A stretch of 36,691 nucleotides of DNA from Candidatus Peregrinibacteria bacterium (GTDB lineage Bacteria; Patescibacteriota; Gracilibacteria; UBA1369; PNNO01): the NCBI GenBank assembly GCA_014728955.1, contig WJKT01000087.1:1-36691 (forward strand), written 5' to 3'. Each line of letters opens with the position of its first letter. The stretch's first letter is position 1. The notes under the pieces were generated by a model, which worked only from the letters and a program-made list of their open reading frames with translations, did not search any database and had not been told where the DNA came from. Made by a program: the position numbers and the translations under genes. Below, piece by piece: positions 3,455-20,934 of the stretch.

Positions 3455-5866
3455 GTGGGGCGAAAAAACAAAAAACACTCATGGATATCCCGTACGATTT
3501 TTAACAAGCTCATGAATATTACAAGTGATGAGTGGCCTCGTATAGCCATTTCTTGGAGCTTGCAATTTTTATATAAGACGGGTTTTATTATTGGATGGAC
3601 TGTTTTGCTATCCATTTTTGCCACACGTTTCGGCATTCTTTCATTGCCGTTATTTTTTATTTTATATGCATTTTTAAATATTCTCGGTGCACTCGCCTAT
3701 TCGTTTGTACTCGATAAAATGAGAAAAGATACCATGATTATAGCGACTGCCTTAGGTGGAGCGCTTATCTTTTTATGTGCCGGGCTGCTTTCATATTATA
3801 GCGAAACATTGTTTATTTTCCTTGCAGTTGCAGGATTGGCTGTCGCCTTTACACAACTGTATATATTAAATTCCAGTTTTATAGAGGATCTATTCTCCCC
3901 TCTTGAAAGCGAACGAACATTCCCGCTTATTGAATCGGCTGAAACAATTGGTGGGATAGTCGGTGGTCTTCTCATTACCAGTTATGTAGGTAGTGTATCG
4001 ACCGCACATCTTTTAAACTTTTTGGTTATTATTCTGGTTATGATTGTGCCGCTTATGGTCTTTCATCGTCAATTATTGAAAAAACTTCCTTTTATTCACT
4101 TTAAAAAAAGAAAGCGTAATCCTGGTATCAATCTGCAGGAAATCAAAAATAATATTCGTCACGTACGACGGCTACCCTTTTTGAAAGTTCTTTTGGTTGT
4201 TGTTTTATGCCAATGGGTTTTTGCAAATTTACTTGAATTTCAGTTTATCGAAGCCTTATTCGGCCATCTCCCCGAGGGACTTCGCGCTGAGAAAGAACTA
4301 ACTCACGGGTTGGGGTCCCTCCAAGTACTGTTTCATTCGGTCGCTCTATTAATGCAACTGCTTGTTGCTAGCAGGATTATTTCTTCACTTGGCATCATTT
4401 CTTCACTGCTATTACATCCGGTAGTAACACTACTGAGTATCGGAACACTATTTTTCCGTTTTGGTATACATTCTGCTCTACTCACACGTATCAATTATGA
4501 AATGACATTTGTTATTTTTAAAAATGCCTACCATTCCTCATATTATGCCATTCAACCAAAAATTCGTGAACAAATACGAGAACTTCTGGAAGGGTTTGCA
4601 CGTCCCATGGGAACTATCTTCGGCATGGGAATGCTGCTGCTTTTTGAACGGATATTTAGTGGCACAACCTTCACGCAAAGCATAACTCTTCTCATGGCCA
4701 TAATTATGGCGATCATGCTTTTTGTTTTGGTTAAAAATGATAAACAATACACGCAGACTTCCGTTAAAACACTACTACGGTCTGATGAACTGTCACTACA
4801 ACTAAACGGCATAGAAATTTTAGGACAAAGGGGCCATAAAAACGCAACCGATATACTTACAAGAATGCTCAATAAAGACGATATTGATGATAAAGTTCGC
4901 ATAAAAATTCTTGAAACACTTGGGCATATCAAAGATCCTCAATCACTTATTGAAATAACCGATTCACTTAACCATAGCAATCCCGCTGTTCGTAAGGCGG
5001 CACTTATTGCCCTGGATGCTTTTGATACCTTCTCAAAGAAAGGTCAAAATAATCCTTTTTCAAATCACCGAACAAATGATTTATTGAAAAAGATGTTTTT
5101 GGACGAAGATGATTTTGTCATTAAATCATTAATTATTTCAATACTCACCAAACACAATAAAGGCGATATTGTCCCTTATTTGATTTCTCTTTTACAATCC
5201 AGTGATAAAAAACACCAAGTAGATGCAATTCAAGTATGTGGAAATTTTAATGATATATCGCTTGCACATTATCTTATGCCGTTTTTACATTCGAAAGAGC
5301 CAATTATCCGGTCACGCACTATTGTTGCACTTTGGCAATTTAAACGATATCGGATGCAGTTGTTGCAGGAGATAAAAAATATGCTTTTCAGTAAAGAAAA
5401 AGCTGAGCGATTAGAAGCGTATCATGTGCTTGGTGAAATTAAAGCGCTGCATGAAAAAAACAGGTTATTGGCTCTTCTTTCTTCCTCAGATGACGATGAG
5501 AGACTTGCAGCCGCCATTGCGCTGGCAAAAATGAATATATACGATGGAATACCCATTATTACCAATACCGTTGTCTACGACCCTTCATCACGCAAACGTT
5601 TGGTTCATTTAATTCAATGGGAAGTTTCAAAAAAAATGCGCACCTATATGCGTAAAGAAATAAATCAAAAAGTCTCTGTATATATCAATCATTTGTTATC
5701 TGAAAGTCACAAAAAAACACTAGAAGAGCTTGACACAACAACCTTATTGAAGCTTCGAAGTGCATATGAACTTGTCAATGAGCATGAAGAAGTGGAAAAT
5801 GTTAACAGAGTGCTGCAAAGCACATCGATTGAATATAATCGAGCTATACAATTTAATCCCGCTTAA
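3455..5866 (+). CDS. 12-TM MFS-fold transporter (N-terminus resembles the Npt1/Npt2 ATP:ADP-antiporter-like lineage) fused to a C-terminal HEAT-repeat domain
   Basis: 803 aa. I count 12 hydrophobic helices in a 6+6 layout split by a basic loop (HRQLLKKLPFIHFKKRKRNP). Residues ~450-800 contain repeated PBS-lyase-type HEAT units (ILGQRGHKNATDILTRML, VRIKILETLGHIKDP, NPAVRKAALIALDAF, IIRSRTIVALWQF, ERLAAAIALAKM). GTG start; the substrate is not determinable from sequence. Confidence 0.75.
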   Translation: MGRKNKKHSWISRTIFNKLMNITSDEWPRIAISWSLQFLYKTGFIIGWTVLLSIFATRFGILSLPLFFILYAFLNILGALAYSFVLDKMRKDTMIIATALGGALIFLCAGLLSYYSETLFIFLAVAGLAVAFTQLYILNSSFIEDLFSPLESERTFPLIESAETIGGIVGGLLITSYVGSVSTAHLLNFLVIILVMIVPLMVFHRQLLKKLPFIHFKKRKRNPGINLQEIKNNIRHVRRLPFLKVLLVVVLCQWVFANLLEFQFIEALFGHLPEGLRAEKELTHGLGSLQVLFHSVALLMQLLVASRIISSLGIISSLLLHPVVTLLSIGTLFFRFGIHSALLTRINYEMTFVIFKNAYHSSYYAIQPKIREQIRELLEGFARPMGTIFGMGMLLLFERIFSGTTFTQSITLLMAIIMAIMLFVLVKNDKQYTQTSVKTLLRSDELSLQLNGIEILGQRGHKNATDILTRMLNKDDIDDKVRIKILETLGHIKDPQSLIEITDSLNHSNPAVRKAALIALDAFDTFSKKGQNNPFSNHRTNDLLKKMFLDEDDFVIKSLIISILTKHNKGDIVPYLISLLQSSDKKHQVDAIQVCGNFNDISLAHYLMPFLHSKEPIIRSRTIVALWQFKRYRMQLLQEIKNMLFSKEKAERLEAYHVLGEIKALHEKNRLLALLSSSDDDERLAAAIALAKMNIYDGIPIITNTVVYDPSSRKRLVHLIQWEVSKKMRTYMRKEINQKVSVYINHLLSESHKKTLEELDTTTLLKLRSAYELVNEHEEVENVNRVLQSTSIEYNRAIQFNPA

Positions 5867-5867
5867 T

Positions 5868-6224
5868 ATGGCAACTATAGAAGTATTACCTCAAGAAACA
5901 ACAGATGACCCCTATCAAACTATCGTTATTAAAGGAGAGGTTGATCGAGATACCATAGATTCTCTACGTGAATCTATGGAAAAAGTGCTTTCAACGCTTC
6001 AGAAAAAAACACTGGTACTGAATTTGGAACATCTTGAATTTATTAATAGTGAAGGAATTGGCTACTTAACCGATATTTATAATCGATTGTCGGGAATGGA
6101 TAAAAAAGTGGTTATTGTGCATGCTTCAGATCGTATTATGGATATTTTTCAATTAGTTGGGCTTAACCAAATTATTACCTGCTATGCAAATGAAGAAGAA
6201 ATGAAAGCCAATCTCAGTCAATAA
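5868..6224 (+). CDS. STAS-domain protein (anti-sigma-factor antagonist, SpoIIAA/RsbV-like)
   Basis: The 118-aa form starts at ATG 5868, 1 nt after the upstream stop (5864-5866). It has the typical STAS pattern VIKGEVDRDT...LVLNLEHLEFINSEGIGYL...VVIVHASDRIMDIFQLVGL, with a Ser at the usual phospho-acceptor position (INSEGIG). I rejected the longer ORF-track start at 5760 because it overlaps the upstream gene by 107 nt. Confidence 0.85.
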   Translation: MATIEVLPQETTDDPYQTIVIKGEVDRDTIDSLRESMEKVLSTLQKKTLVLNLEHLEFINSEGIGYLTDIYNRLSGMDKKVVIVHASDRIMDIFQLVGLNQIITCYANEEEMKANLSQ

Positions 6225-6235
6225 ATTATTTTTCT

Positions 6236-7372
6236 ATGATTACCTGGATACGAAAAAGTATTACAAAAAGGATATCTCTGTGGCTTCTCCTGCTGGGAGG
6301 TGCGGGCGGTTATGCGGCTTATTACTATTGGGACACTGCATATAGTATTCCGCTTCCCTATTGTTTAGCGGGCGGCGCTGCCCTTTTACTGATTTTCATT
6401 ATTCTTCTTCATACGTATGTTAACAGGCCGCTTCGTATTCTCACTAAACAAATGAAATTATTGTTAACGGGGCGTTCATATAAAAAAATAACGACCGGAC
6501 GTATTGATGAAATTGGCATTATTGCTCAATTTTTTAATGAAATCACACAAAATCTCGAGAGTATTTCACAAAAACTTAAAGAGGGGCAAAGAATGTCATC
6601 TGAACTTGAAATAGCAAGTTCCATTCAGCGATCCATTCTGCCGGCACAAAGTCCCGATGTTCCTCACTTGGAGGTTGTGGCAAAATCACGACCTGCAGTG
6701 GAAGTTGGCGGAGACAGTTTTGATTTCATACAACGTGACAACGCTACATATTTTTATGTGGGTGACGTCACTGGTCACGGTGCTCCCGCAGCATTGGTTA
6801 TGATGATGGTTAACACGTTGCTTCATACGTACTCGGAGATGTATTCAAGTATTTACGATATTGTAGTTAACACTAATAAAATTTTAAAACCTCGCATTAA
6901 AGCGGCAATGTTTATGACTATGGTAATGCTGAAATGGGATCATACCAAGGAAACGTTATCGTATGTCGGTGCGGGGCACGAACATCTGCTCATTTACCGA
7001 AGCAAAACAGGAAAAGTCGAATCAATAGCTGCCGGAGGTGTTGCTCTGGGAATGGTTCCCGACAACAGCAAATTGGTTAAAGAAAAACAACTGAACCTTG
7101 AAGATGGAGACATGGTGGTTATTTATTCCGACGGTATTACCGAAGCAAAAAATGATAAAGGGGAAATGTTTGGCTTGGAAAATCTTGTTGCGTTAGTGCA
7201 AAAATACGCCACCCAATACGGCCCTGAAGGGGTTACCTACCATACGGCACTGGATTTTTCTCAATATGTGGGAGACGCACAGCAAGAAGATGATATCACC
7301 CTTATGGTTCTTCGTTATTCAAAACAAGGACAAGCACAAGAGAAAAAGACCTCAAAAAGCACTAATTGGTAG
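6236..7372 (+). CDS. Membrane-anchored HAMP-domain PP2C (SpoIIE/RsbU-family) serine phosphatase
   Basis: Two N-terminal TM helices with a very short loop are followed by a HAMP-like segment (RPLRILTKQMKLLLTG...IDEIGIIAQFFNEITQNL). PPM motifs then follow (GGDSFDF, GDVTGHGAPAAL, YSDGITEA, DDITLMVL). Confidence 0.9.
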   Translation: MITWIRKSITKRISLWLLLLGGAGGYAAYYYWDTAYSIPLPYCLAGGAALLLIFIILLHTYVNRPLRILTKQMKLLLTGRSYKKITTGRIDEIGIIAQFFNEITQNLESISQKLKEGQRMSSELEIASSIQRSILPAQSPDVPHLEVVAKSRPAVEVGGDSFDFIQRDNATYFYVGDVTGHGAPAALVMMMVNTLLHTYSEMYSSIYDIVVNTNKILKPRIKAAMFMTMVMLKWDHTKETLSYVGAGHEHLLIYRSKTGKVESIAAGGVALGMVPDNSKLVKEKQLNLEDGDMVVIYSDGITEAKNDKGEMFGLENLVALVQKYATQYGPEGVTYHTALDFSQYVGDAQQEDDITLMVLRYSKQGQAQEKKTSKSTNW

Positions 7373-7380
7373 TATCTTTT

Positions 7381-8403
7381 ATGAAAAAAAGCGACTTCTA
7401 TTTTGATCTGCCCGAAGAATTGATTGCGCAAAACCCCATCTCTCCGCGAGACAGGTCTCGATTGATGGTCTTGGACCGTACAGAAAAAACCATTCGTCAT
7501 CATCATTTTTTCGAACTCCCGTCTTTGCTTCCTGAAAATAGTGTGCTTGTTATTAATACAACTAAAGTTATCGCGGCACGACTGTATGTCGTTATCGATA
7601 ATAAGGAAGGTGAACTGTTGCTCCTTAAAAAGAAAAAACCTCATGTGTGGAAATGCATGGTTAAACCGGGGAAAAAATTTACGCGAAACACGTCATTTCG
7701 TGTTAAAGGGAGACAAACCTCTATTACCGGATGTGTAGAAAAAATACATCCTGACGGTACGCGCGATATCAATTTTGATATGAAAGGGAATTTCTCTCAG
7801 TGGCTTTCTGAAAACGGCTATGCACCATATCCTCCGTATATAAAAGATACCAGTGCGTCCTTTGAAGATTATCAAACAACCTATGCCAAGGATGAAGGGA
7901 GCGTTGCAGCTCCAACAGCAGGACTTCATTTTACCGATCGTGTTTTTGAAGCACTAAAAAAGCGAAACATCGATATTATTCCTATCACTCTCCATGTTGG
8001 TCGAGGAACATTTTTGCCAGTAAAGAGTGAATATATCCAAGATCACGTTATGCATAAAGAGTGGTATGAATTGTCACAAGAAAGTGCTGCTTTGCTTAAT
8101 AAAGCAAAGCGAGAAAACCGAAGTATTATTGCTGTTGGAACCACATCGGTTCGCACACTCGAATCAAATATTAATAAGAGCACATTTACGGCAAAAACAG
8201 AAGAAACCGATATATTCATCTATCCGGGCTACACCTATAAGGCGGTCGACGGCATTATCACCAATTTTCATTTACCCGAAAGCACATTGATTATGCTTAT
8301 CAGCGCATTTGCAGGGAGAGATTTTATATTAAATGCGTATCGCGATGCCGTTAATAAGAAATATCGCTTCTATAGCTTTGGCGATGCCATGCTTATTTAC
8401 TAA
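7381..8403 (+). CDS. queA: S-adenosylmethionine:tRNA ribosyltransferase-isomerase
   Basis: MKKSDFYFDLPEELIAQNPISPRDRSRLMVL, AAPTAGLHFT, ITLHVGRGTFLPV, VGTTSVRTLES and NFHLPESTLIMLISAF are canonical QueA motifs. I prefer ATG 7381 over 7366 because 7366 overlaps the upstream stop. Confidence 0.95.
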   Translation: MKKSDFYFDLPEELIAQNPISPRDRSRLMVLDRTEKTIRHHHFFELPSLLPENSVLVINTTKVIAARLYVVIDNKEGELLLLKKKKPHVWKCMVKPGKKFTRNTSFRVKGRQTSITGCVEKIHPDGTRDINFDMKGNFSQWLSENGYAPYPPYIKDTSASFEDYQTTYAKDEGSVAAPTAGLHFTDRVFEALKKRNIDIIPITLHVGRGTFLPVKSEYIQDHVMHKEWYELSQESAALLNKAKRENRSIIAVGTTSVRTLESNINKSTFTAKTEETDIFIYPGYTYKAVDGIITNFHLPESTLIMLISAFAGRDFILNAYRDAVNKKYRFYSFGDAMLIY

Positions 8404-10805
8404 AGCCATTCCGGAACATACTGCGGCTTTGTTATTTCATCTATACCAAGAACCAAGTCAATGTCATCAGCATTGAATTTTCCACGGTATAAATCTTTAA
8501 TCTCGCCGCCGGCTGCAACAAATTGTTTAATTTGGTTATAGCCTTTGTAATATAGTAAATCTTTTGTAAATCCTCCGTGTTCAGCAGTATCTTCCAAACC
8601 GCGTTTTACCTTAAGCGCATTACGCCAAGCACGTTCAGGTGGGATTTTATAATCCAACATTTTTTCAAACACTTCAACAAACGAGTGTTTCAACGCATAA
8701 TCAACGGCGAGTACCAATGAAATAGAAACATAAAGATTCGTATCCTCATCACCTTTCTGATTGACAATATTGTACATCGCTAAACCTTCCTGTGTTTCCA
8801 AATAATTGGCAAGTCCTCTGTTAAACAATTCATAGTATTGCCCCTTACCGTTTTCCGCGGTCAAAATATGTGTTTCTATCTCATGGACAATAAGATTTTC
8901 AATGCGTTTTTCCGTAAACAAAGCCCCTTTTCTAATAAACAAACGGTTGTTTTTCCCTGCAATGGCATCGGAAACCATATGTTCTTTAATTTTAACCTGC
9001 CAATTTTTCAATCCATACTTATGAAAGACTTCATCCATAATTTTTTTAGCTTCGGGAGCTTCAATGGTTCCTTTTTCCTGTTTGTATGTCACCGATGTTT
9101 TGGTAATCCATTCACGTGCACGATCAACCATTTTGGTATCGGGAACACCAAAAAGCTGCTTGGAAGCGTTTGTAAACTCTTCAGCAAACCCTCTAAATTC
9201 AAGCAGGTGAATTTTTCGTTCAATTTCTTGCTTTTTCTTAGCAAACAATTTCCCTAATGTTGATTGGTCTGTGTTTATAGCGCTCAAATCACGTTTCAAT
9301 GCATACAAATCAAATTTCAATTCCGGATATATAAACTGTGGATTCTTTTTGAAGTTTTTAAAAAAGGCGTTTTTTTCATCTTCCAGATTTACTGGGCGCA
9401 AGTGGTACAGAAGCTTTAATTTTTCATCGATTTTGATCAGATGCTGATCTATTTCATGATAATTGATCGTCTTTTTCTTATCTCCGGTAGTTGTCGGCGT
9501 CTCTTTTTTCTCAATATTTACGGTTTTTGCCGTTGGTAAAACCGTTTCTCTATCTTTCCGTGACGGATCAATAAAAAAGTTTGAAAGATCACGACTCCCC
9601 ACGATGAGTTCATAATCTTGGTCGGTTATCTTTTCGATATCAACAACCGTCTGAATTCGCTCTCCTTCAATAGATAATTTTAATTTGGTGGTTGATTTTT
9701 CATCATCATATCCCTGATCATCATCAAGTAACCCGGCTTCTATTGCAAATCGTTCATCAATAACAGAGCGTTCTCGTCCGGAATCCATTTTCGCTGTTAC
9801 TCGCCTTGTTCCATCTTTCAAATAAATATCGACAATTTCTTCAATACCGATAACATTTTTACCAGATACATGATGGATATTTTTTTCAACAACATTTCCG
9901 AACATATCTTTTGCTATCCGCACACCTTTTGTGGGATTGGTTACTTTAACACCTTCAATACGTTGTAAGCGTTTTTTTAACGGAGCAAGATTGGCAATTT
10001 GTACACCAAGCCCCGCCCGAGCATTAATTTCAAGGAGTACCGGACCGGATGTTTTATCAATACAAATATCGGCCGCCATATATCCCAAATTAGTTATCAA
10101 CTGGCATTGTGAGGCGATCATCAATATGTCCTCCCAATAAGGAATCTTTAATCCTTTTATGGGCCCGACACCGGGAATATCATCAATGATTTTGTTTTTA
10201 TATGAAATAAATGTTGCCTCCCCTTTTGCAATATCAATACCGACTCCCACAGCCCCCAGATGCAAGTTAGCTTTACCCAATGATTCTTTTGTCGGCAATC
10301 GAAGCATCGCCATGACCGGGATAAGGTTGTGAACAACAACACGAATATCGGGGAGTCCTCGATAGGCATAATTTGCTAATGTTTCATGAGAAATAATCAA
10401 TTGTTCAAAAAACGCGCTATCCCCTACATTCGAAATCGAATATCGCCCATCAATAGTATCCGAAATATGATCTATTAAATACTCTTTATCAAGTTTTCTT
10501 CCCGATGCCGTTATCCACGTATTTTCGCGTCTGTTTACAATAGGAATAATACCTTCGCCCCCAAAACCATGATTAGGCTTAATAATAAAAGCGTTTGGCA
10601 ATGAAGAAAAATCAAACTTTTCCAATTCTTCTTTTGTACGAATCGAACCATATAACTTGGGAACGGGAATTCCACGAGCCGACAGAAACTTTTTGGTTTT
10701 CAGTTTATCATCAGCCAGTTTGATAGTTTTTTTCTTATTATATGGCCGAATATATTCTAAATTTCGAGCATTTAAGCCAAGCAGGCCTTTTCCATTAAAA
10801 AACAT
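8400..10805 (-). CDS. Three-domain fusion: RimK-related ATP-grasp (alpha-L-glutamate-ligase-like) + retropepsin-like 'ATP-dependent zinc protease' domain + DUF1704/MATCAP-type HExxH-QEGLA metallocarboxypeptidase
   Basis: Residues 1-~295 (GLLGLNARNLEYIRPYNKKKTIKLADDKLKTKKFLSARGIPVP...IIKPNHGFGGEGI...LLEINARAGL) match the rimK-related ligase-like family. Residues ~315-415 (IGIEEIVDIYL...AKMDSGRERSVID...ELIVGSRDLSNFFIDPS) match the PF05618-type retropepsin-like fold, with D341-S342-G343 at 9777-9785. Residues ~445-801 carry HEIETH (641-646; 8868-8885) and ETQEGLAMY (QEGLA at 8778-8792), the hallmark of the 'QEGLA motif' DUF1704 family. Confidence 0.85.
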   Translation of the reverse strand: MFFNGKGLLGLNARNLEYIRPYNKKKTIKLADDKLKTKKFLSARGIPVPKLYGSIRTKEELEKFDFSSLPNAFIIKPNHGFGGEGIIPIVNRRENTWITASGRKLDKEYLIDHISDTIDGRYSISNVGDSAFFEQLIISHETLANYAYRGLPDIRVVVHNLIPVMAMLRLPTKESLGKANLHLGAVGVGIDIAKGEATFISYKNKIIDDIPGVGPIKGLKIPYWEDILMIASQCQLITNLGYMAADICIDKTSGPVLLEINARAGLGVQIANLAPLKKRLQRIEGVKVTNPTKGVRIAKDMFGNVVEKNIHHVSGKNVIGIEEIVDIYLKDGTRRVTAKMDSGRERSVIDERFAIEAGLLDDDQGYDDEKSTTKLKLSIEGERIQTVVDIEKITDQDYELIVGSRDLSNFFIDPSRKDRETVLPTAKTVNIEKKETPTTTGDKKKTINYHEIDQHLIKIDEKLKLLYHLRPVNLEDEKNAFFKNFKKNPQFIYPELKFDLYALKRDLSAINTDQSTLGKLFAKKKQEIERKIHLLEFRGFAEEFTNASKQLFGVPDTKMVDRAREWITKTSVTYKQEKGTIEAPEAKKIMDEVFHKYGLKNWQVKIKEHMVSDAIAGKNNRLFIRKGALFTEKRIENLIVHEIETHILTAENGKGQYYELFNRGLANYLETQEGLAMYNIVNQKGDEDTNLYVSISLVLAVDYALKHSFVEVFEKMLDYKIPPERAWRNALKVKRGLEDTAEHGGFTKDLLYYKGYNQIKQFVAAGGEIKDLYRGKFNADDIDLVLGIDEITKPQYVPEWL

Positions 10806-10814
10806 AGATAACGG

Positions 10815-12383
10815 TTATTCCTCCTCCACATGCCGAAGCACTTCACGAAAACGGACGTATTCAAGTAACCGTAGCCCCGTCCATCTACCGAGGAAAATAT
10901 TAATAAAGATGATTAAAATAATAACTTCGGGATATGCCAACATAAACCCTTGCAGGGCGGTAAAATGTATTTTGAAAAGATACAGGTCAATTGCCCCGCC
11001 AATAACAATATATGCGACAATTGCAACAAATACGGTTTGCAAACTTAAGATAATTGCTTTTCTGAAGCCTTTCCCTCCCTGAACATTAACAAATTTTTCC
11101 GTTAATGTGCTTAAAATCAACATAGGGAAAATCGATAACGAATAGAACTGTGCATCAAATAAATTAAATCGAATAGAAATAATCAGCATAAAGAGAATAG
11201 CAATAGCAACCGATGTCAGCACAATAGCCATTCGCGGCACGTAAAGCAGCCTGTAGCGTTTTAAGACAGAACGAGCACCCGTTCCCACCAAAAATACAAT
11301 AAGAAGCGTTAAGAGCCCGAATTTTAATCCCAGAATCCAGAAAGTGAGTGTAATAATTGTCGGAGTATAAACGCCAAAGGTGGTAAGCCCCACAACTTGC
11401 TTCATAATAGAAACCATAGTGGCGATAACAGGCAGCATAAGAATAAGAATAACGGTATTTGCCGGAATACCGCTGTCAATCAAGTAATTCACAAAATAAG
11501 ACATAAAATTCCATAATTGGAGTTGCCCTGTTTGCGCATTGGTTAATTGATAATCGTATCCGTCTTTTTCCATGCGTTGAATAAATTCCTCTGCTGTTGC
11601 ACTTTCTATAAAGGCATAAATGGCAGCTTCTTTTGCCGAGACAATGTTGTCAGGCTTAAGCAGTTCATATTGACGTTGCAATTGAGCGGTAGCCTGATCA
11701 TCATCGGAAACAACCAAAATGGTCTTGTCATCAAACGTTAAGGGGTCTTCCAAGTCAGCTTGATTTTGCTTAACACGTGAAAGTGCATTAAGGCCGGAAT
11801 GCCCTTCCGTCCACACAATAATTTCATCAATTTTCTTTAAATTTCCGATAGCTTCGCTCAACTTACGTTCAAGAATTTCTTCAGTAATAAATTCAGTCGC
11901 GCTATCGTAACTTTCATATACCAAAATATCGGTATCTCTATCTCTCGCGTAGTTTTTAAATCCTTCAACCCTATCTTTGATATCCGCTTTATCGGTAATA
12001 AAAACAATAATCTTTTTATATACAAAAATGTCACGTATGATGGTTTTTGTTTCCGTTCCGTCGTTTGCAGAAAGTGTAATTGTCTTTTGTCCCAACGTCG
12101 TATAAGTATGTACAACTTCTCTCCCCTCTTTTTTATTGCCGTCGCCAAAATCCCAATTATATGTGATAGATGCATCTTCATCGGGATGTGTTGTCTTTGC
12201 GGCATCAAAAATAATATTCTTATCAATCTGAATAGATTCCGGAGCCGTCATTTGCACCTCAAACGTTACTTCTTCCGGAGTCGACTCTTCGATAGCGGGC
12301 GTATCTTGTGCATATACCGCAAGCGGGAGTACATATAATAGGAGCGCACCGGCAGCTACACATTTTTTTATTGTTCTAAACAT
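10815..12383 (-). CDS. Secreted PKD-domain + alpha/beta-domain protein anchored by a C-terminal 7TM module (7TM_transglut-like), with C-terminus -VEEE
   Basis: It has a signal peptide (MFRTIKKCVAAGALLLYVLPLAVYAQ) and a PKD motif (ITYNWDFGDGNKKEGREVVHTYTTLGQKTITLSANDG). A ~150-aa alternating beta-alpha region follows, then 7 hydrophobic helices with family-typical LPVIATMVSIMKQVVGLTTFGVYTP and LGRWTGLRLLEYVRF. I prefer start 12383 (8-nt overlap with the ilvE stop) over 12416. Confidence 0.8.
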   Translation of the reverse strand: MFRTIKKCVAAGALLLYVLPLAVYAQDTPAIEESTPEEVTFEVQMTAPESIQIDKNIIFDAAKTTHPDEDASITYNWDFGDGNKKEGREVVHTYTTLGQKTITLSANDGTETKTIIRDIFVYKKIIVFITDKADIKDRVEGFKNYARDRDTDILVYESYDSATEFITEEILERKLSEAIGNLKKIDEIIVWTEGHSGLNALSRVKQNQADLEDPLTFDDKTILVVSDDDQATAQLQRQYELLKPDNIVSAKEAAIYAFIESATAEEFIQRMEKDGYDYQLTNAQTGQLQLWNFMSYFVNYLIDSGIPANTVILILMLPVIATMVSIMKQVVGLTTFGVYTPTIITLTFWILGLKFGLLTLLIVFLVGTGARSVLKRYRLLYVPRMAIVLTSVAIAILFMLIISIRFNLFDAQFYSLSIFPMLILSTLTEKFVNVQGGKGFRKAIILSLQTVFVAIVAYIVIGGAIDLYLFKIHFTALQGFMLAYPEVIILIIFINIFLGRWTGLRLLEYVRFREVLRHVEEE

Positions 12384-13281
12384 AGTAAAGCCAATTAGTA
12401 GACAGAATATCTTCACCGTTGATTATACCAGTAAATCGAGATTTTAAAGAATGAGTTACAGGACCAATATTTTCATTCCCTATACTTACCTTGTCAATCA
12501 CCCGAACCGGAGTAATTTCTGCAGCGGTTCCGGTAAGAAAAACTTCATCTGCTTGTTTCAGTTCATCGGGAGTAATTGTTTGTTCATGAACCGGTATATT
12601 CATTTCATCCGCAAGCTGCATAATTGTATCGCGCGTTATTCCTTTTAAAACAGTCTTCGTTGAAGGAGTAAACAATTCGCCGTTACGAACCATAAATACA
12701 TTTTCCCCGGGTCCTTCGGCAATATTCCCTTCTCCGTCAAGCAAAAGCGCTTCATCGTAACCGTGATGAGCACTTTCCAGTCCCGCTAAAATGGAATTTG
12801 TATAATGACCGCATATTTTCGCTTGTATATCGGTTGTTTGCGGATGGATCCTCCGATATGAAGAAATATGCAGCCGAATGGTTTCTTCTCCGAGATACGA
12901 TCCCCATGGCCAACAGGCAATGCATACATGAAGCGGTGCTCCGGTAGGAAGCAACCCCATTTTCCCATATCCGTAAAAAATGAGCGGCCTGATATAACCG
13001 TTTTTTAATGCATTTCTCTGTACGGTTAATGTTAACGCATCAATGAGTTCATCATGGGTATATGGCACTTCCATTTTCAGCACCGATGCCGAATACAGTA
13101 AGCGTTTTATATGCTCCCGTGGTCGAAAAAGAGCCACTCTCCCTTTAGCGGTTTGATAACATCGGATACCTTCAAACACACCTCCTCCGTAGTGAAGACT
13201 GTGTGAAAGTACATGAATTTTTGCCTTTTCCCACGGGATTGATTCCCCGTCCATCCAAATATATTTTGTTGGCTCAATCAT
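12376..13281 (-). CDS. ilvE: Branched-chain amino-acid aminotransferase
   Basis: IWMDGESIPWEKAKIHVLSHSLHYGGGVFEGIRCY, RPREHIKRL, GYIRPLIFYG and EGPGENVF...LFTP...LKGITRD are class IV aminotransferase / IlvE motifs. I prefer the start at M19 of the ORF (13281). Confidence 0.9.
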   Translation of the reverse strand: MIEPTKYIWMDGESIPWEKAKIHVLSHSLHYGGGVFEGIRCYQTAKGRVALFRPREHIKRLLYSASVLKMEVPYTHDELIDALTLTVQRNALKNGYIRPLIFYGYGKMGLLPTGAPLHVCIACWPWGSYLGEETIRLHISSYRRIHPQTTDIQAKICGHYTNSILAGLESAHHGYDEALLLDGEGNIAEGPGENVFMVRNGELFTPSTKTVLKGITRDTIMQLADEMNIPVHEQTITPDELKQADEVFLTGTAAEITPVRVIDKVSIGNENIGPVTHSLKSRFTGIINGEDILSTNWLYYV

Positions 13282-13352
13282 AGTAATTATTACAAAGTCA
13301 ACCCGGATCGTATCAAATGTACCTGGAAAACTCAATAAAGCATGGTGCTTCT

Positions 13353-13381: not shown

Positions 13382-13412
13382 TATATGAATTTATAAGAGA
13401 AAAACTGTGCAT

Positions 13413-15596
13413 ATGAAAAAAATCTATACAAAACTCATTTCCGTTATCGCATTTGCTGCGCTTTTAATTACGCAAAACAGTGCGGTTTTTGCCGCGGCTA
13501 ACCCTTTTACTGTTGAAGCATATGGCATCGACACCATTGCCGGGTATACCGCTCATATTTATTCATCAAAGACACTCCCCGGAAAAACTGTACATTTTTA
13601 TGTTGAGAAACCAAATGGGAACACACTTTCCATACCCGTAGAATCGGATGAGACAGGGGTGGCGGAATTTGATCTCTATGATTATCATACGAAAAAAGCG
13701 GGAACCTACAGCGTTTCGGCACAATTGGAAGGCGGAAAAGAAGGTCCAACCAATACATTTTATGTTTTTCCCGATGAGATTTCTTCAATGGAATCAACAG
13801 TTGAAGCGTCATCACTTCTTGCTACCGCAAACGGAATTGATAAAATTTATATAACCATTACGCTCAGCGATAAACACGGTAATCCCATTAAAGGACACGA
13901 AGTAGAAGTTGTTTCAAGCCGAATGGCAGATTCGGTACAACGTATTTCTGAACAACAATTCACCGATAAGAACGGTGAAATTATCTTTTGCGTTTCATCT
14001 GACAAAGAAGGGGTTGCAATCTACTCTTTCTTAGACACTACAGCTAATACTGTTTTAGATAAACGACTGGAAATTGCATATAGTCTTCCCTCAAATGTGG
14101 GGGGCTTTGTTCCAACGGCGTATGCCGCAGCAGGAGAAGTAGAACGATTTATTTTTGAAGATCTTCCCGCTTCGATTACCGCAAATGCTGATGTTGGATT
14201 TTCCTTAACCGCTGTTGATTCAGAAGGAGATGCCGTCCCTAATTATGCAGGAACCGTACATTTTTCCGCTGAAGGAACCAATAGTGTTTATGCGTCGCTT
14301 CCAAATGATTATACTTTTGACGTTGATCTGGATAGCGGTAGTCATAATTTCAGCGGTGTTCAGTCACTTAATTTTGCTCAAGAAGGAATATATACTATTG
14401 TCGCCACTGATCTTGATGATTTTACCATTAGAGGTGAAACAGAGATAACCGTTGGAGCCTCTTCAACACAACATCAAGACGATGATACTCCCGATACCGA
14501 AGGGTCAACCGACAGTTTAGCTATTACAAGCCCGACTTCCGGAACATACAGCAGTAATGAACTGGTTATTAACGGGACAGCTCCACTTGTCGGAGCAACC
14601 ATCCAAATTTTCGATAATGATACAAATATCGGATCAGCTGAAGTAGATACCGATAATACATTTTCGTACGAACCATCAATTGTGGTGGAAGGAGAACATA
14701 CCTTTTTTGTTGTCATGCAAGATGAAGACGGAACTATTTTAGACACATCGGATGATGTAACTATCAGTATAGATACTTCTCCACCTGTCGTTGAAAATAT
14801 TGAATTTTCACCATCTTCAGGCATACAAACAGGTGATATTATAGATATTATTGTTACTTCCGAACCAACCGTATTCCAAGGTGCCGTCGTCTTTGACGTT
14901 GATATTGCGGAACTTGAACAAGATGCGACTGATGAAACAAAGTATGTGGCATCAATCCAGGCCCCTTCAGAACCGGGGACCTACCCTCTTGATGTTATTC
15001 TTGTTGACGAACTCGGCAATGAAGGAGCATATGAAGACATTGCAACTATTGAAATCGATGATGATGGTGGAACAACCATTAATGGAGATGCCGAAAACGA
15101 ACCTATGGAAGATGAAGACACGGAGCAAGAAGAAAATGAAGCTCCCTCTGATGTGTTTGGTGTAAAAGCAACATCCTCAGATAAAAAAGTAACCTTGTCA
15201 TGGCAACCATCCACAGATGATTCTGCCGTAGACCACTACACTATTTTTTACGGATTAACACCGGCCAATCTTACACAACAGGTTGATACGTTTGATAACA
15301 GAACAACGTGGTATATCCCGGAGCTGACCAATGGGAACGAATATTTCTTTTCGATTGTCGCCGTTGACGATGAAGGAATGGAAAGTGAAAACATGAGCAG
15401 CATTATTAGTGCAATACCTTTCAGCCCTGCTCCCGTGTTTGTCCCTCCTGAGCCACAACCTCAGCCGGTTACCGACGTTCAATACAAACCCGTCGCACCA
15501 ACCATGCAATCAACCGGTCCCGAAGAAGTATGGTTTGTACTGCTTTCTTTAGTACTCGCACAGCTTTACTTTAAGTTTAAGAAGAAAGTATGCTAA
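13413..15596 (+). CDS. Large secreted cell-surface protein with Ig-like (Big_1-type), further Ig-like and fibronectin type III domains and a C-terminal membrane anchor/sorting-like signal
   Basis: Signal peptide MKKIYTKLISVIAFAALLITQNSAVFAAA. Invasin/intimin-like Big_1 segment (TVEASSLLATANGIDKIYITITLSDKHGNPIKGHEVEV). FN3 segment (KVTLSWQPSTDDSAVDHYTIFYG...NGNEYFFSIVAVDDEGMES). A Pro-rich stalk is followed by QSTGPEEVWFVLLSLVLAQLYFKFKKKVC. An alternative GTG start lies at 13407. Confidence 0.85.
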   Translation: MKKIYTKLISVIAFAALLITQNSAVFAAANPFTVEAYGIDTIAGYTAHIYSSKTLPGKTVHFYVEKPNGNTLSIPVESDETGVAEFDLYDYHTKKAGTYSVSAQLEGGKEGPTNTFYVFPDEISSMESTVEASSLLATANGIDKIYITITLSDKHGNPIKGHEVEVVSSRMADSVQRISEQQFTDKNGEIIFCVSSDKEGVAIYSFLDTTANTVLDKRLEIAYSLPSNVGGFVPTAYAAAGEVERFIFEDLPASITANADVGFSLTAVDSEGDAVPNYAGTVHFSAEGTNSVYASLPNDYTFDVDLDSGSHNFSGVQSLNFAQEGIYTIVATDLDDFTIRGETEITVGASSTQHQDDDTPDTEGSTDSLAITSPTSGTYSSNELVINGTAPLVGATIQIFDNDTNIGSAEVDTDNTFSYEPSIVVEGEHTFFVVMQDEDGTILDTSDDVTISIDTSPPVVENIEFSPSSGIQTGDIIDIIVTSEPTVFQGAVVFDVDIAELEQDATDETKYVASIQAPSEPGTYPLDVILVDELGNEGAYEDIATIEIDDDGGTTINGDAENEPMEDEDTEQEENEAPSDVFGVKATSSDKKVTLSWQPSTDDSAVDHYTIFYGLTPANLTQQVDTFDNRTTWYIPELTNGNEYFFSIVAVDDEGMESENMSSIISAIPFSPAPVFVPPEPQPQPVTDVQYKPVAPTMQSTGPEEVWFVLLSLVLAQLYFKFKKKVC

Positions 15597-15642
15597 AATC
15601 TGCTTTGGTGTTCAAACGTTACTTAAAGCAGAACATATAACT

Positions 15643-15903
15643 ATGCAAGCATACATCGCACTTTTTATCGACATTTTAGGTGAAATCATCATCTTGGCGA
15701 TTTTGATCAGAGTCATCATGTCATGGATTCGTCCCATGGGCGCACGCGGCACGTTCGGCACGTTTGTTTTTGAAATCACCGAACCGCTCTTGTCGTTTTT
15801 CAGAAAAATCATTCCCCGTATCGGTATGATTGATATATCTCCTATTGTAGCGTTGTTTGCCATAGAAATTGTACGCTCTCTTTTATTGAGTCTCTTGATG
15901 TAA
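15643..15903 (+). CDS. yggT: YggT-family membrane protein
   Basis: 86 aa with the YggT pattern ILIRVIMSWIRP...EITEPLLSFFRKIIPRIGMIDISPIVALFAIEIV. Confidence 0.8.
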   Translation: MQAYIALFIDILGEIIILAILIRVIMSWIRPMGARGTFGTFVFEITEPLLSFFRKIIPRIGMIDISPIVALFAIEIVRSLLLSLLM

Positions 15904-15912
15904 TTTTTACGT

Positions 15913-17301
15913 ATGATATCAATATATAATACCTTAAACAGAACAAAAGAAGCTTTTGCTCCTATTAGAAAGAAACACGTGGGAATATATTTATGTGGCC
16001 CCACGGTGTACGATAATGCACATTTGGGGCATGGAAGAAGTGCCGTCGCCTTTGATATTATTCGTCGTTACTTTATTTATAAAGGATATAAAGTGAATTT
16101 TATATCAAATTATACCGATATTGATGACAAAATGATTAATCATGCCGTGGAGAAAAAAATACGAGTTTCCGAATTGGCCGAACTGGTTATTCCCCATTAC
16201 GTTAAAGATTACTCAAATCTCAATGTCTTGCCGGCGACAAAACACCCACGCGCAACCGATTATGTCCCGCAAATCATTGAGCTCATTAAGCAACTTGAAG
16301 ACCAAGGAGCGACATATGAGCTTGAAGACGGCATCTATTTTAATATAAAAACGTTTCCCGATTACGGAAAACTATCTAATCAAAATATTGATGATCTTCA
16401 AATGGGTGCACGTGTGGATGTTAATAAAGAAAAAAAGAATCCACAGGATTTTGCGCTTTGGAAAAAAGAAAAACCCGGTGAACCATCTTGGGACAGCCCT
16501 TGGGGCAAAGGAAGACCCGGCTGGCATATTGAATGTAGTGCTATGAGTATGGATATTTTGGGTGAAACCTTTGACATTCATGCCGGTGGCGCAGATCTTG
16601 TTTTCCCTCACCATGACTGTGAAATAGCGCAAAGCGAATGTGCAACCAATAAACCATTTGCACATTATTGGATGCATAACGGATTTATAAATATCAATAA
16701 AGAGAAAATGTCCAAATCCTTGGGTAATTTTATAACGCTCAAAGATCTTTTTAAAGAATATTCGGGAGACGTCATACGATTTTTATATTTACAGACCCAC
16801 TACCGATCCCCTATTAATTTTTCTTCGGATTTATTGGAACAATCGGTTAATACACTGCAACGTATTCATGATTTTGTCCGCACTTTGGAAAACATACAAA
16901 ATCCGGGAACACTGCATCCCCTGGTGCAAAAAGAAATTGATACTCTGCTTGCAACATTTAAAGAGCGAATGGACGATGATTTTGATACTCCCGAGGCACT
17001 TGCCGCTTTGTTTGAATTCATCAAAGCAGTATATGTTCTTCATAAGAGATCTCCTCTTACAACCAATGATGCAAAAGAAATTTTGGGCGCACTACGCTCA
17101 ATCGATGAGGTTTTTGCCGTTATTTTCACAAAAGAGAAAGAAACGCTTTCAGATGAACTGATGCATCTTATTGGCAATCGTGAAAAAGCGCGAGAAGAAA
17201 AAGATTGGGAAACATCCGACAAAATCCGCGAAACGCTCAAAAAGAAAGGTGTTATTGTTGAAGACACCCCCGAAGGAACCGTATGGAAAAAAACAAACTG
17301 A
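15913..17301 (+). CDS. cysS: Cysteinyl-tRNA synthetase
   Basis: Class I motifs: HLGH (GPTVYDNAHLGHGRS), KMSKS, the zinc/cysteine-site WHIECS, and GGADLVFPHH. Confidence 0.96.
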   Translation: MISIYNTLNRTKEAFAPIRKKHVGIYLCGPTVYDNAHLGHGRSAVAFDIIRRYFIYKGYKVNFISNYTDIDDKMINHAVEKKIRVSELAELVIPHYVKDYSNLNVLPATKHPRATDYVPQIIELIKQLEDQGATYELEDGIYFNIKTFPDYGKLSNQNIDDLQMGARVDVNKEKKNPQDFALWKKEKPGEPSWDSPWGKGRPGWHIECSAMSMDILGETFDIHAGGADLVFPHHDCEIAQSECATNKPFAHYWMHNGFININKEKMSKSLGNFITLKDLFKEYSGDVIRFLYLQTHYRSPINFSSDLLEQSVNTLQRIHDFVRTLENIQNPGTLHPLVQKEIDTLLATFKERMDDDFDTPEALAALFEFIKAVYVLHKRSPLTTNDAKEILGALRSIDEVFAVIFTKEKETLSDELMHLIGNREKAREEKDWETSDKIRETLKKKGVIVEDTPEGTVWKKTN

Positions 17302-17302
17302 T

Positions 17303-18658
17303 TCACATATTTCCGTCGGCAACAAGAACTTCTCCCAGTTCCCAAATATCGCCGGCTCCCATAATCAGGGCAATATCAATGTCATCACTGTTGTTTTTTA
17401 AATATTTCTTTATTTCTTGATACGTTTCCAGATGATATGTCTGTATGCCCTGTACTTGCACCGCCTCGATTAAATCATCAACCGATATACTAGTAACATC
17501 TTGTTTTGTATCACGAACACGATAAATATTAGGAATAATAACAATATCAGCTTCTTTAAACGACGAAGCAAATTCGGATAAAAATTGTTTTGTCCTGTTA
17601 TACTGATGTGGTTGAAAAATACAACATATCTTTTTTCCCGGATATCGTTGCCGAGTCGCTTTCAGAGTGCTTTTAATGGCTGTGGGGTGATGAGCATAAT
17701 CATTAATGATGGTTATGCCGTTATATGTTCCCATAATATCAAAACGTCTCCATGATCCCGTGAAACCATTTAAAGTTTTTATCACCGTTTCCCGATTAAT
17801 TGCAAGAATGTCTCCCAGAATATAGGCGGCTAGCGCATTCATTTTATTGAAGTCGCCGGGAACCGAAAGATGTAATGTCCCCTGCTTTTTCTTACCCTTA
17901 TAAAGGGTATTATCGGCAATGGTAAAATCTGCATCGGCATTATGCGTAGAAAACGTTATAATCTTTGCTTTTTGACCGGCAATAACATCACGCACATTGG
18001 GATCGTCTATATTGGCAATCAAATATCCTTCCTTGGGTAGCTTTTCTATAAATTCTTTAAAAGCACTTTTATAATCTTCCAGATCTTTATAATAATCCAA
18101 GTGTTCCGCCTCAAGATTGGTAAGTATAATAATATTTGGATTATATCTGAGGAAATTACGTTTATATTCGCATGCTTCAACAAGAAATATATCGCCATCC
18201 CCTTGACGATAATTGTTATTATCCAGTTGCTTCACTTGCGATCCAACCACGACAGTAGGATCTTTTTTACCCGCCACCATAACCAATGCAGCCATGGAAG
18301 TAACGGTTGTTTTCCCATGGGTTCCACATACCGCGATGGTATAACTGTCTTCAGTATATTCACCGATTGCTTCGGAGAATGTCATAATTTCAATATCGTG
18401 TTTTCGCGCATAAGACAATTCGGGATTCGTTTCCGGGATAGCGGATGAAACAATAACCAGATCGGGGGAATTTTCAATATGTGCCGTATCATGACCAACA
18501 TAAATAGTAATCCCCTTTTTTTGCATAGTTTGCAATAAATGAGAGTCATTCATGTCCGAACCCGATACGACGTGACCCTGTTCATGTAAAATTTGAGCAA
18601 GACCACTTAACCCGATACCTCCAATTCCTATACAGTGAATGTGTTTACCTGCTTTCAT
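17303..18658 (-). CDS. murC: UDP-N-acetylmuramate--L-alanine ligase
   Basis: N-terminal HCIGIGGIGLSGLAQIL, the Mur ligase P-loop CGTHGKTT, and Mur ligase middle and C-terminal domains (DYAHHPTAI). Confidence 0.95.
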   Translation of the reverse strand: MKAGKHIHCIGIGGIGLSGLAQILHEQGHVVSGSDMNDSHLLQTMQKKGITIYVGHDTAHIENSPDLVIVSSAIPETNPELSYARKHDIEIMTFSEAIGEYTEDSYTIAVCGTHGKTTVTSMAALVMVAGKKDPTVVVGSQVKQLDNNNYRQGDGDIFLVEACEYKRNFLRYNPNIIILTNLEAEHLDYYKDLEDYKSAFKEFIEKLPKEGYLIANIDDPNVRDVIAGQKAKIITFSTHNADADFTIADNTLYKGKKKQGTLHLSVPGDFNKMNALAAYILGDILAINRETVIKTLNGFTGSWRRFDIMGTYNGITIINDYAHHPTAIKSTLKATRQRYPGKKICCIFQPHQYNRTKQFLSEFASSFKEADIVIIPNIYRVRDTKQDVTSISVDDLIEAVQVQGIQTYHLETYQEIKKYLKNNSDDIDIALIMGAGDIWELGEVLVADGNM

Positions 18659-19261: not shown

Positions 19262-19287
19262 CACTCATTTCTAATGAGTGTTTTTTT
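19262..19287. terminator. Bidirectional Rho-independent terminator between the tRNA-fMet and pgsA-like 3' ends
   Basis: Perfect 8-bp stem CACTCATT/AATGAGTG (19262-19269 / 19273-19280) with a 3-nt loop, followed by T7 (19281-19287) on the + strand. On the - strand the same hairpin is followed by gTATTTTT. Confidence 0.6.
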
Positions 19288-19816
19288 ACGCTTTGCTAAA
19301 AATATGTTTCCAAAATGATCGCCCACCCATAACTCCCAAAATAAGAGCAACAAGTAAATTAACAAAAGCAATAGTTTGGAAAACAGTAATTCCCATTATA
19401 AGGAAAAGCTCTCCACAGAGTATGGCAATATCTATGAAAAATGATTTAAACTTTGCATAAAAAGGCGGCTTTATGAACAGTTTTTCTATTGTTGCATATT
19501 TTAAGGATGTATCCACAATCAGTTCACGAGCAATTAATACCATAACAATCCACAAAGGAAACACCTCTAATGTTGCCAGGGCAATCATTACCAAAACATG
19601 CAATAATTTATCTGCTATCGGATCAAGCAAAATCCCCATTTTGCTTTCTTGCTTTAGTGTGCGTGCAAGGTAACCGTCTACCAAATCACTGGCTGCAGCA
19701 ATTGCATATATAACGATAGCAACATGATAATGGTAGGGAAACTCAAAAAAAAGTGCGCCAATGGCAAACGGAACAAGAAAAATTCTAAAAAAACTAATAT
19801 AATTAGGAAGCGTCAT
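19286..19816 (-). CDS. CDP-alcohol phosphatidyltransferase (PgsA-like)
   Basis: 176 aa and multi-pass. It carries the family signature D(x2)DG(x2)AR(x8)G(x3)D(x3)D in ASDLVDGYLARTLKQESKMGILLDPIADKL. Head-group specificity is not assignable by eye. Confidence 0.85.
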   Translation of the reverse strand: MTLPNYISFFRIFLVPFAIGALFFEFPYHYHVAIVIYAIAAASDLVDGYLARTLKQESKMGILLDPIADKLLHVLVMIALATLEVFPLWIVMVLIARELIVDTSLKYATIEKLFIKPPFYAKFKSFFIDIAILCGELFLIMGITVFQTIAFVNLLVALILGVMGGRSFWKHIFSKA

Positions 19817-20786: not shown

Positions 20787-20934
20787 TGCCTTGCATTATA
20801 TGCAATAAATAGTGTACTTTCATTTCGTCATGACATCATGAACGCCGCTCTTTGAAATCGGCTGACGACGGTTTTTTTCTGCCTATTTACGAAAATATAC
20901 AGAAAGATGTCGTCGTCAGAAAGGCTGGTCTGTG

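Follow-up and report, generated by a model that had tools for sequence, protein, structure and literature searches.

The locus described here raises the question of whether the C-terminus of a membrane protein is modified by the enzyme that the neighbouring gene encodes. The window, that is, the whole stretch of 36,691 nucleotides analysed (contig WJKT01000087.1 of a Candidatus Peregrinibacteria bacterium), carries on its minus strand a gene for a protein with a predicted extracytoplasmic domain and seven hydrophobic helices, hereafter the 7TM protein, which ends in ...RFREVLRHVEEE (longer stretches of the same ending are LEYVRFREVLRHVEEE and GRWTGLRLLEYVRFREVLRHVEEE). The terminal Glu-Glu-Glu is encoded by GAG GAG GAA at 10818..10826 and is followed by the TAA stop codon at 10815..10817, a spacer of 9 nt at 10806..10814 and the ATG, at 10805, of an 801-residue partner on the same strand, as an initial annotation of this DNA had described. 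In related loci, the two genes are separated by anything from an overlap to a few tens of nucleotides and are always on the same strand. The tail has been proposed as an acceptor or a recognition element for the partner. Its use as the substrate of a cycle of addition and trimming is the best reading of the sequence comparisons described below, and we give it about an even chance.

The glutamate tail and the partner enzyme

A search of 5.8 billion proteins for homologues of the 7TM protein has yielded 180 relatives. The best 120 of the 180, which were picked by overall similarity and not by the tail, are full-length PKD and 7TM proteins with 41–91% identity from Peregrinibacteria, Gracilibacteria, Patescibacteria and unclassified 'bacterium' records, and 119 of them end in EE, EEE or EEEE, the single exception ending in ...QE. 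The EE terminus is also present in 79 of 80 species-representative genomes. The initial annotation had named the conservation of an acidic C-terminus among orthologues as a check on its proposal, and these counts uphold it; the background frequency of an EE ending is 1.0% (7 of 679 other long open reading frames (ORFs) of the related loci). The residues directly ahead of the glutamate run vary (HV, HI, HN, YT, LQ, DL, NS), and the spacer to the EE terminus varies from 8 to 16 residues. The run itself is 2–4 residues long and differs even between relatives with 78–81% identity (EEEE in P0007, EE in P0010 and EEE in others), as would be expected of a tail that is a substrate and has its length reset post-translationally. 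A tail entropy calculation was dropped as evidence of conservation since it is circular for the last two positions, EE-ending tails having been pre-selected, and it was used for spacer length only. Within the 36.7-kb window, no other acidic C-terminus is found save that of a secreted DsbA-like protein.

The partner is a fusion of three domains. Residues 1–292 (9930..10805, minus strand) form an ATP-grasp ligase domain of the RloC/TIGR02291-like type (Pfam ATPgrasp_ST, PF14397, E=1e-68). The partner scores 279 bits (E=3.4e-83) against TIGR02291, 'alpha-L-glutamate ligase-like', which is under the curated cut-off of 314 bits, and 41.1 bits (E=1.4e-10) against rimK_fam TIGR00768, for which the curated cut-off is 143.4 bits. 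The ligase is thus related to RimK and is not a family member by the curated threshold. A Pfam scan of the partner gives no match to TTL (PF03133) at E<=0.01. The ATP-grasp residues K76-P-N, the loop glycines G80/G82/G83/G85 and E259-x-N261 are invariant in 30 partner homologues. Residues 293–425 (9531..9929, minus strand) form a retropepsin-like middle domain of the RimB/RloA type with a degenerate site, MDSGRE, and the motif LIVGSRD. The Pfam matches of the middle domain are weak (Asp_protease_2, E=0.078; gag-asp_proteas, E=0.12), and the homologous domain of one relative (L073) matches PF05618 with 35.7 bits against a cut-off of 27. The middle domain was rejected as a second active eraser, as Ala is missing after its D-S-G and homologues fused to MATCAP do not conserve the motif.

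Residues 450–801 of the partner (8403..9458, minus strand) form a MATCAP (DUF1704/TIGR02421 QEGLA) metallocarboxypeptidase domain (Pfam E=1.6e-58), with HEIETH at 8868..8885 and QEG at 8784..8792. The partner scores 198.9 bits against MATCAP PF08014 (cut-off 27) and 193.7 bits against TIGR02421, under the cut-off of 338.65, and phmmer matches its MATCAP domain to human KIAA0895L (7z5g, 7z6s; E=7e-9), HEIETH being aligned with HEIGTH and QEGLA with EEGLA. H641, E642, H646, Q672, E673 and G674 are invariant in 30 homologues. By these residues, the catalytic motifs of both the ligase and the MATCAP domains are intact, and conservation of the partner (at least 57% identity over 120 clusters) exceeds that of the membrane protein. 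Since the partner has no signal peptide and no hydrophobic or transmembrane segment and needs ATP, it is predicted to be soluble and cytoplasmic.

MATCAP (KIAA0895L/TMCP1) and its paralogue TMCP2 strip the C-terminal Tyr, and then Glu, from the tails of alpha- and beta-tubulin and also take off polyglutamylation, and TTL is an ATP-grasp ligase that restores Tyr on the -EE end of tubulin (PMC10499314). Since MATCAP enzymes trim E-rich tubulin tails, the enzyme and the -EE tail of the 7TM protein match chemically. Activity on acidic tails is reported for the eukaryotic enzymes alone (PMC10499314), and no assayed bacterial MATCAP/DUF1704 member was found in the searchable literature.

The acidic tail and the MATCAP domain occur together in the family. 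A 7TM-domain profile was compared with 1.84 billion proteins, giving 1,771 representative clusters at 50% identity. Of the best 147 informative clusters of the 1,771, a terminal EE or longer run of Glu is seen in 69, one acidic residue at the end in 17 and a basic or neutral ending in about 61. Contrary to the premise of the initial annotation, the acidic tail is thus not a trait of the whole 7TM_transglut family. Scanning of 172 loci with hidden Markov models (HMMs) built from the family's own domains left 113 non-redundant loci with a readable partner after duplicates and truncated partners had been dropped. All 70 unique 7TM proteins that have a MATCAP-bearing partner end in EE (68 with a fused MATCAP and 2 with adjacent split ORFs of strong scores), and the gene next to every 7TM protein with an EE terminus in the 113-locus set encodes a ligase carrying MATCAP. 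A fused MATCAP is found in none of the 43–44 relatives without the EE tail, in which the partner is an ATP-grasp and retropepsin protein of 430–490 residues. The retropepsin motif hD[TS]GA is intact in 43 of the 44 partners lacking MATCAP and degenerate in all partners fused to it (DTGR, DTS, NAS, APE, DPS and others), and the downstream IIG.RD motif is retained in both groups. Since the retropepsin site is decayed wherever MATCAP is fused, MATCAP may have replaced retropepsin as the working peptidase where the tail turned EE. Further afield in the family, the same combination of EE and MATCAP is found in a locus of the Gracilibacteria type (L088, ...REDSQEE), in an ectodomain-less relative (L090, ...RENIEEE) and in a GC-rich organism (L176, ...EVEYAEEE). 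The context of extra loci from other EE clades (L174, L175, L177 and L178) ends at contig edges.

Some related loci carry additional genes. The Doudnabacteria-type loci (L073, 7116..12991, on the same contig as L107, and also L108) look like an intermediate: the 7TM tail is ...KKKEEG[RK], the partner consists of ATP-grasp and an active-type retropepsin (IDTGAG), and a separate MATCAP (HEVLGH, EEGIA) is followed by another ATP-grasp-like gene. The L073 relative also shows a sub-threshold TTL match (19.5 bits against 20.1). A second small RimK-like ATP-grasp gene adjoins the 7TM gene in L176 (2596..3573) and L090 (1250..2194), and also in L091 and L092; an extra RimK-like gene beside an ATP-grasp–MATCAP fusion recalls initiator and elongator ligases. 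In L175, a NUDIX hydrolase gene (1863..2312) lies between the genes for the 7TM protein (...KEEEE) and the ATP-grasp protein, and the contig ends ahead of the MATCAP region.

Topology and domain architecture of the membrane protein

The seven-helix membrane domain (7TM_transglut; about residues 290–505; 10869..11516, minus strand) matches Pfam PF14402 with E=2.6e-28 and 99.6 bits against a cut-off of 25, residues 323–526 of the 533-residue ORF being aligned with positions 57–247 of the 248 of the HMM. An AlphaFold2 (AF2) model of the 7TM protein, for which 50 homologues were the input and the mean predicted local distance difference test score (pLDDT) is 83, places helices at residues 308–331, 339–351, 353–374, 381–405, 411–432, 437–461 and 487–521, their membrane part covering residues 308–505. 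Hydropathy and the distribution of Lys and Arg agree with these helices. The last membrane helix extends into the tail, the final residues of which have low confidence. The loops on the tail side carry 8.4 Lys and Arg residues in 50 homologues, against 2.6 in the short loops on the side of the ectodomain. Since the tail and the two most basic loops are on one side by any count of the helices, the positive-inside rule predicts that the C-terminal tail is cytoplasmic and that the ectodomain is outside. The cytoplasmic C-terminus that the initial annotation had derived from helix number is thereby borne out by charge bias.

Between the bundle and the tail lies a juxtamembrane helix, GRWTGLRLLEYVRFREVLRHV (residues 499–519; 10827..10889, minus strand), predicted to be cytoplasmic. 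This helix is conserved, with the family motif G[RK][WFY].GLR..E..RF[RK], and G499, W501, G503, E508 and F512 are invariant in 50 homologues. The motif is retained in all of the 147 best informative clusters, including those with non-acidic tails, and also in the RloB of Legionella.

The ORF of the 7TM gene covers 10815..12416 on the minus strand and has 533 residues when counted from a GTG codon. The ATG at 12383, which gives 522 residues, is probably the best start, because the N-terminus (MFRTIKKCVAAGALLLYVLPLAVYA, then QD) resembles a signal peptide, agrees with the aligned homologues and leaves an overlap of only 8 nt with the gene upstream. The start codon and the predicted signal peptide occupy 12306..12383 on the minus strand (residues 1–26, MFRTIKKCVAAGALLLYVLPLAVYA, with cleavage before Q). 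In 49 aligned homologues, the N-termini have a basic n-region, a hydrophobic core and an A-x-A/Q end, and such signal-peptide-like N-termini (M.KK...AFAQ) agree with the 522-residue product. The AF2 model has an N-terminal helix at residues 2–21 followed by a low-confidence linker. The order of parts is therefore signal peptide, PKD domain, alpha/beta module of about 160 residues, 7TM_transglut bundle and acidic tail, and Pfam, the AF2 model and the homologue alignment together confirm the parts that had been read from the sequence at the outset.

The PKD domain (about residues 44–122 of 522; 12018..12254, minus strand) is identified by Pfam PKD_4 (E=6.4e-15) and PKD (E=3.2e-8). Its WDFGDG motif is invariant in the homologue alignment, the AF2 model has a beta-sandwich at residues 50–122, and a Foldseek search matches the domain to the PKD domain of ColG (2y72; E=5.3e-7, TM(target) 0.85). 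When the full model is used as the query, this is the sole Foldseek match, nothing being found for the 7TM bundle and no similarity to a transporter. The alpha/beta module that follows (residues 123–283; 11535..12017, minus strand; 124–281 in the AF2 model) has six beta-strands alternating with helices. Modelled by itself, it reaches a pLDDT of 91 and a predicted template modelling score of 0.88, and it contains the conserved motifs ITD, ES.(G/D)S.TEFISEE and WT..N.GLNALSR. It has no Pfam match and no significant neighbour in a structural search of the Protein Data Bank (best E=3e-3, TM<0.55). The module is thus modelled as a confidently folded extracytoplasmic domain, unassigned to a family and widespread in bacteria of the candidate phyla radiation (CPR).

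A Pfam scan of the 7TM protein gives no transglutaminase match, PKD and the alpha/beta module taking that place. The initial annotation regarded this ectodomain as swapped, but it is no one-off: PKD with alpha/beta is the dominant ectodomain among the best 150 clusters (50% identity) of the 7TM family. In the Peribacteria subgroup (L062–L085), PKD is no longer detectable and the alpha/beta module is retained, and a few other relatives carry different N-terminal regions. Many relatives, of 220–330 residues (L120–L172), are ectodomain-less and still have the 7TM domain and the adjoining ligase. The ectodomain is modular across the 7TM family.

Acceptor, docking site or chance association

These features can be combined in a model of a two-gene module. 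The first gene would supply an outward-facing PKD and alpha/beta ectodomain on a 7TM bundle with a cytoplasmic helix, GRWTGLRLLEYVRFRE..., and a free -Glu-Glu(-Glu) end, and the second would supply a RimK/RloC-type ATP-grasp ligase, a now-inactive retropepsin-like domain and a MATCAP-type zinc carboxypeptidase. The enzyme may dock on the juxtamembrane helix, as the family-wide conservation of the helix and of the gene pairing would suggest. The ligase may then use ATP to extend the -EE terminus by at least one amino acid; Glu is the default guess from RimK, and an aromatic residue, as with TTL, is possible. MATCAP may finally trim the tail back to the encoded -EE, as the chemistry of MATCAP/TMCP on ...EEY and poly-Glu tubulin tails would allow. 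How long the tail is, or what it consists of, would then serve as a reversible mark by which the state of the 7TM/ectodomain module is either reported or set. The proposal that the -EEE tail is the substrate is thus supported in part: the tail is conserved, predicted to be cytoplasmic and co-distributed with MATCAP (70 of 70 against 0 of 43–44), but the pairing of the ligase with the 7TM protein is independent of EE.

Several observations weigh against modification of the tail. First, the ligase is paired with the 7TM protein in the absence of an acidic tail in the RloB-type system of Legionella (...RFNVLAKARS) and in many CPR relatives (...AEKK, ...RNASK, ...RKYANQ). Since the pairing persists there, an EE acceptor at the end of the 7TM protein is no general requirement of the ligase family. 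Second, five loci without the EE tail have a separate divergent MATCAP-like gene 1.3–4.8 kb away; two of the five tails are ...EEG[RK], and in L073 (Doudnabacteria), where the 7TM tail is ...KKKEEGR, the separate gene encodes a genuine Pfam MATCAP member. Third, the terminus of some members of EE clades is ...SQE, ...AQE or ...NSE and not EE. Fourth, in a neighbour-joining (NJ) tree of the 113 unique 7TM domains, built with the tail left out and with parsimony for each character, proteins with EE and proteins without it form one clade each and each character changes once, so that the link of EE with MATCAP appears to be a single co-transition followed by long co-retention, and not repeated convergence. 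Fifth, the genetics of the rlo genes of Pseudomonas would fit an exported product at least as easily as they would a mark on the tail. Finally, that the tail is modified is something that we infer from these sequences.

In this single co-transition, the EE tail and MATCAP appear to have been acquired and the retropepsin site to have decayed. Since the tree gives a single transition, a Fisher p-value of 1e-29 for the EE/MATCAP table is no valid measure and was rejected as independent statistics. The tree bears on the possibility that EE serves an unrelated purpose, such as membrane charge balance, stability or another factor, and arose by hitch-hiking on the same branch as the MATCAP fusion. 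The one inferred co-transition and the single-Glu endings in some clade members would fit such a coincidence, but EE and MATCAP are not decoupled in any of 70 diverged lineages, in which the identity of the 7TM domain falls to about 35–45%, the retropepsin site decays at the same time, the preference of MATCAP for E-rich C-termini fits the tail (PMC10499314), and EE ends only about 1% of other proteins. Coincidence is accordingly very improbable. The co-retention argues that the tail and the MATCAP peptidase domain work together and are functionally coupled, although more weakly than repeated convergence would, and it would suit a substrate and a docking or pseudosubstrate element alike.

The nearest described system bears on a further explanation. 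In the RloABC system of P. aeruginosa, RloB is a 7TM protein with an inactive transglutaminase, RloC an ATP-grasp protein and RloA a secreted retropepsin, a system known from its genetics (PMC12239564). A Legionella adelaidensis plasmid (L173) has an rloABC-like operon that encodes a small retropepsin, an inactive transglutaminase family protein and an alpha-L-glutamate ligase-like protein. The locus in the window shares with RloABC the 7TM_transglut domain, the juxtamembrane G...GLR..E..RF motif, a ligase gene of the ATPgrasp_ST/TIGR02291 type directly downstream on the same strand and a retropepsin-type module in the system. It differs in that the ectodomain is PKD and alpha/beta instead of the inactive transglutaminase of RloB; NCBIfam RloB (NF052267) matches the 7TM part alone (HMM 312–507; 71.5 bits, cut-off 900). 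The retropepsin here is cytoplasmic, fused to the ligase and degenerate, whereas RloA is secreted, and a MATCAP carboxypeptidase is fused on. The -EE(E) tail also contrasts with the non-acidic tail of the Legionella protein, the single RloB-type protein inspected. A scan with the family's own HMMs found no separate retropepsin gene in the window, the sole retropepsin-like domain being internal to the partner. By curated profiles, the 7TM protein is thus a member of Pfam 7TM_transglut and not an RloB, and the partner a member of ATPgrasp_ST and MATCAP and not of RimK or TTL.

Deletion of rloB or rloC suppresses the loss of the periplasmic RloA proteases in P. aeruginosa (PMC12239564), which fits a product that crosses the membrane. 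RimK also yields free poly-alpha-glutamate (PMC12239564). These findings favour an alternative in which -EE, with its likeness to a MATCAP product or to the acceptor of a ligase, is a docking or pseudosubstrate tail that serves only to anchor or regulate the soluble enzyme. The enzyme would then act on something else, be it a free peptide or poly-amino acid made by the ligase and exported through the 7TM bundle, or another protein such as S6. Pairing of an ATP-grasp gene with a 7TM gene is seen throughout the family whether or not the tail is acidic, and the G.W.GLR..E..RFR helix could serve every member as the actual interface. A pure docking motif, however, is not expected to vary from 2 to 4 Glu between close relatives, nor does it need an exact carboxy-terminal position behind spacers of variable length (8–16 residues). 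The two peptidase domains here are joined to the ligase in one cytoplasmic protein, an arrangement that suits a cycle of writing and erasing better than the degradation of an exported product, and the 7TM bundle is without similarity to a known transporter. A docking tail is therefore rather unlikely, though it is the main rival of the add-and-trim reading.

The add-and-trim reading has precedents in two other systems. Ribosomal protein S6, the substrate of RimK, ends in Glu-Glu. RimK extends the C-terminus of S6 (RpsF), and RimB, which is of the retropepsin type, trims it (PMC12239564). The present locus has in common with the RimK/RimB pair a RimK-related ligase, a RimB-like domain and a candidate acceptor that ends in Glu-Glu and is predicted to be cytoplasmic. 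It differs in that the neighbouring gene, and not that of S6, encodes the candidate acceptor, which is a membrane protein, the ligase scores under the RimK threshold, and the putative working eraser is MATCAP, which is predicted to act as such because the RimB-like site has decayed. With the tubulin cycle, the locus shares a metallocarboxypeptidase of the MATCAP family (HExxxH/EEG) paired with an ATP-grasp ligase, and the candidate tail is flexible and ends in -EE, as alpha-tubulin does after detyrosination (PMC10499314). In contrast to the tubulin cycle, the ligase is of the RloC/ATPgrasp_ST type and not of the TTL family, a single polypeptide holds the writer and the eraser, a 7TM protein is the candidate substrate, and the system is bacterial (Peregrinibacteria/CPR). 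The adjacent 7TM gene as the source of the candidate substrate, the fusion of writer and eraser, and the decayed retropepsin domain between them set it apart from both. The CPR relatives with non-acidic tails (L086, L087 and L093–L172, and L073 of Doudnabacteria) share the 7TM domain, the gene order, the ligase, the retropepsin-like domain and often PKD and alpha/beta, but have tails such as ...EKK, ...GKI, ...ASK and ...ANQ, an intact D[TS]GA and no fused MATCAP.

Gene neighbourhood and implications

The genes around the module occupy 3455..8403 and 13407..18658 of the window. One flank encodes a HEAT-repeat/MFS fusion, a STAS protein, a SpoIIE-type phosphatase and QueA, and the other a large anchored Big_1/fn3 surface protein, YggT, CysS, MurC and DivIC. 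In L001, L003 and L004, the whole neighbourhood is syntenic over 43–91% identity, and so adjacency within Peregrinibacteria is no independent evidence. These flanks bear on another explanation, in which the enzyme acts on a different cytoplasmic protein, the 7TM protein relays an outside signal and the acidic tail is autoinhibitory or allosteric. The ligase domain is RimK-related, and the neighbouring partner-switching set (STAS, SpoIIE) hints at signal-transduction logic, both of which would suit such a role. Against it, the window contains no candidate acidic-tailed substrate, the syntenic neighbourhood is uninformative, and the tight two-gene unit persists in the unrelated contexts of L088 and L176, making an action on a different protein improbable.

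The surface protein, whose gene is transcribed divergently, could have a functional link to the ectodomain. Its gene is separated from the 7TM gene by one for a class IV aminotransferase (12376..13335, minus strand; Aminotran_4, E=6e-57). The aminotransferase gene overlaps the start of the 7TM gene by 8 nt, and L001, L003 and L004, the three homologous loci inspected, lack it at this place. Further away and unrelated to the tail, a LytR_cpsA_psr protein and then an 841-residue TrwB/TraG-like coupling-protein ATPase are encoded at 23296..26995 (minus strand), and CDP-alcohol phosphatidyltransferases at 19286..19816 and 20932..21906.

Gene neighbourhoods of this kind were reportedly first described by Iyer et al. 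in 2009. No description of the variant with an EE tail and an ATP-grasp–MATCAP protein was found in the searchable literature, and the paper of Iyer et al. may hold related predictions. We know of no substrate of a bacterial DUF1704/MATCAP protein, and the variant names a concrete candidate, the -EE terminus of the neighbour itself. Two questions thereby become directly testable, namely the role of RloB/RloC-type modules and the targets of bacterial MATCAP proteins, and natural controls are at hand in sister systems that have basic tails and an active-type retropepsin in place of MATCAP. A broader proposal is that the module is a reversible bacterial 'tail code' on a 7TM surface sensor, which would give the first substrate and function of a prokaryotic MATCAP/DUF1704 protein and a counterpart of the tubulin cycle, mechanistic and possibly evolutionary; this we regard as plausible, with a probability somewhat short of even. 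If the -EE tail is merely a docking motif, the locus still defines the recruitment of a ligase to a membrane protein. If the tail is modified, the RloB/RloC module of Pseudomonas and Vibrio would gain a biochemical model that can be tested, the writer and eraser logic of the tubulin code would be present in bacteria with very small genomes, and a bacterial surface sensor would have a new way to store or transmit its state.

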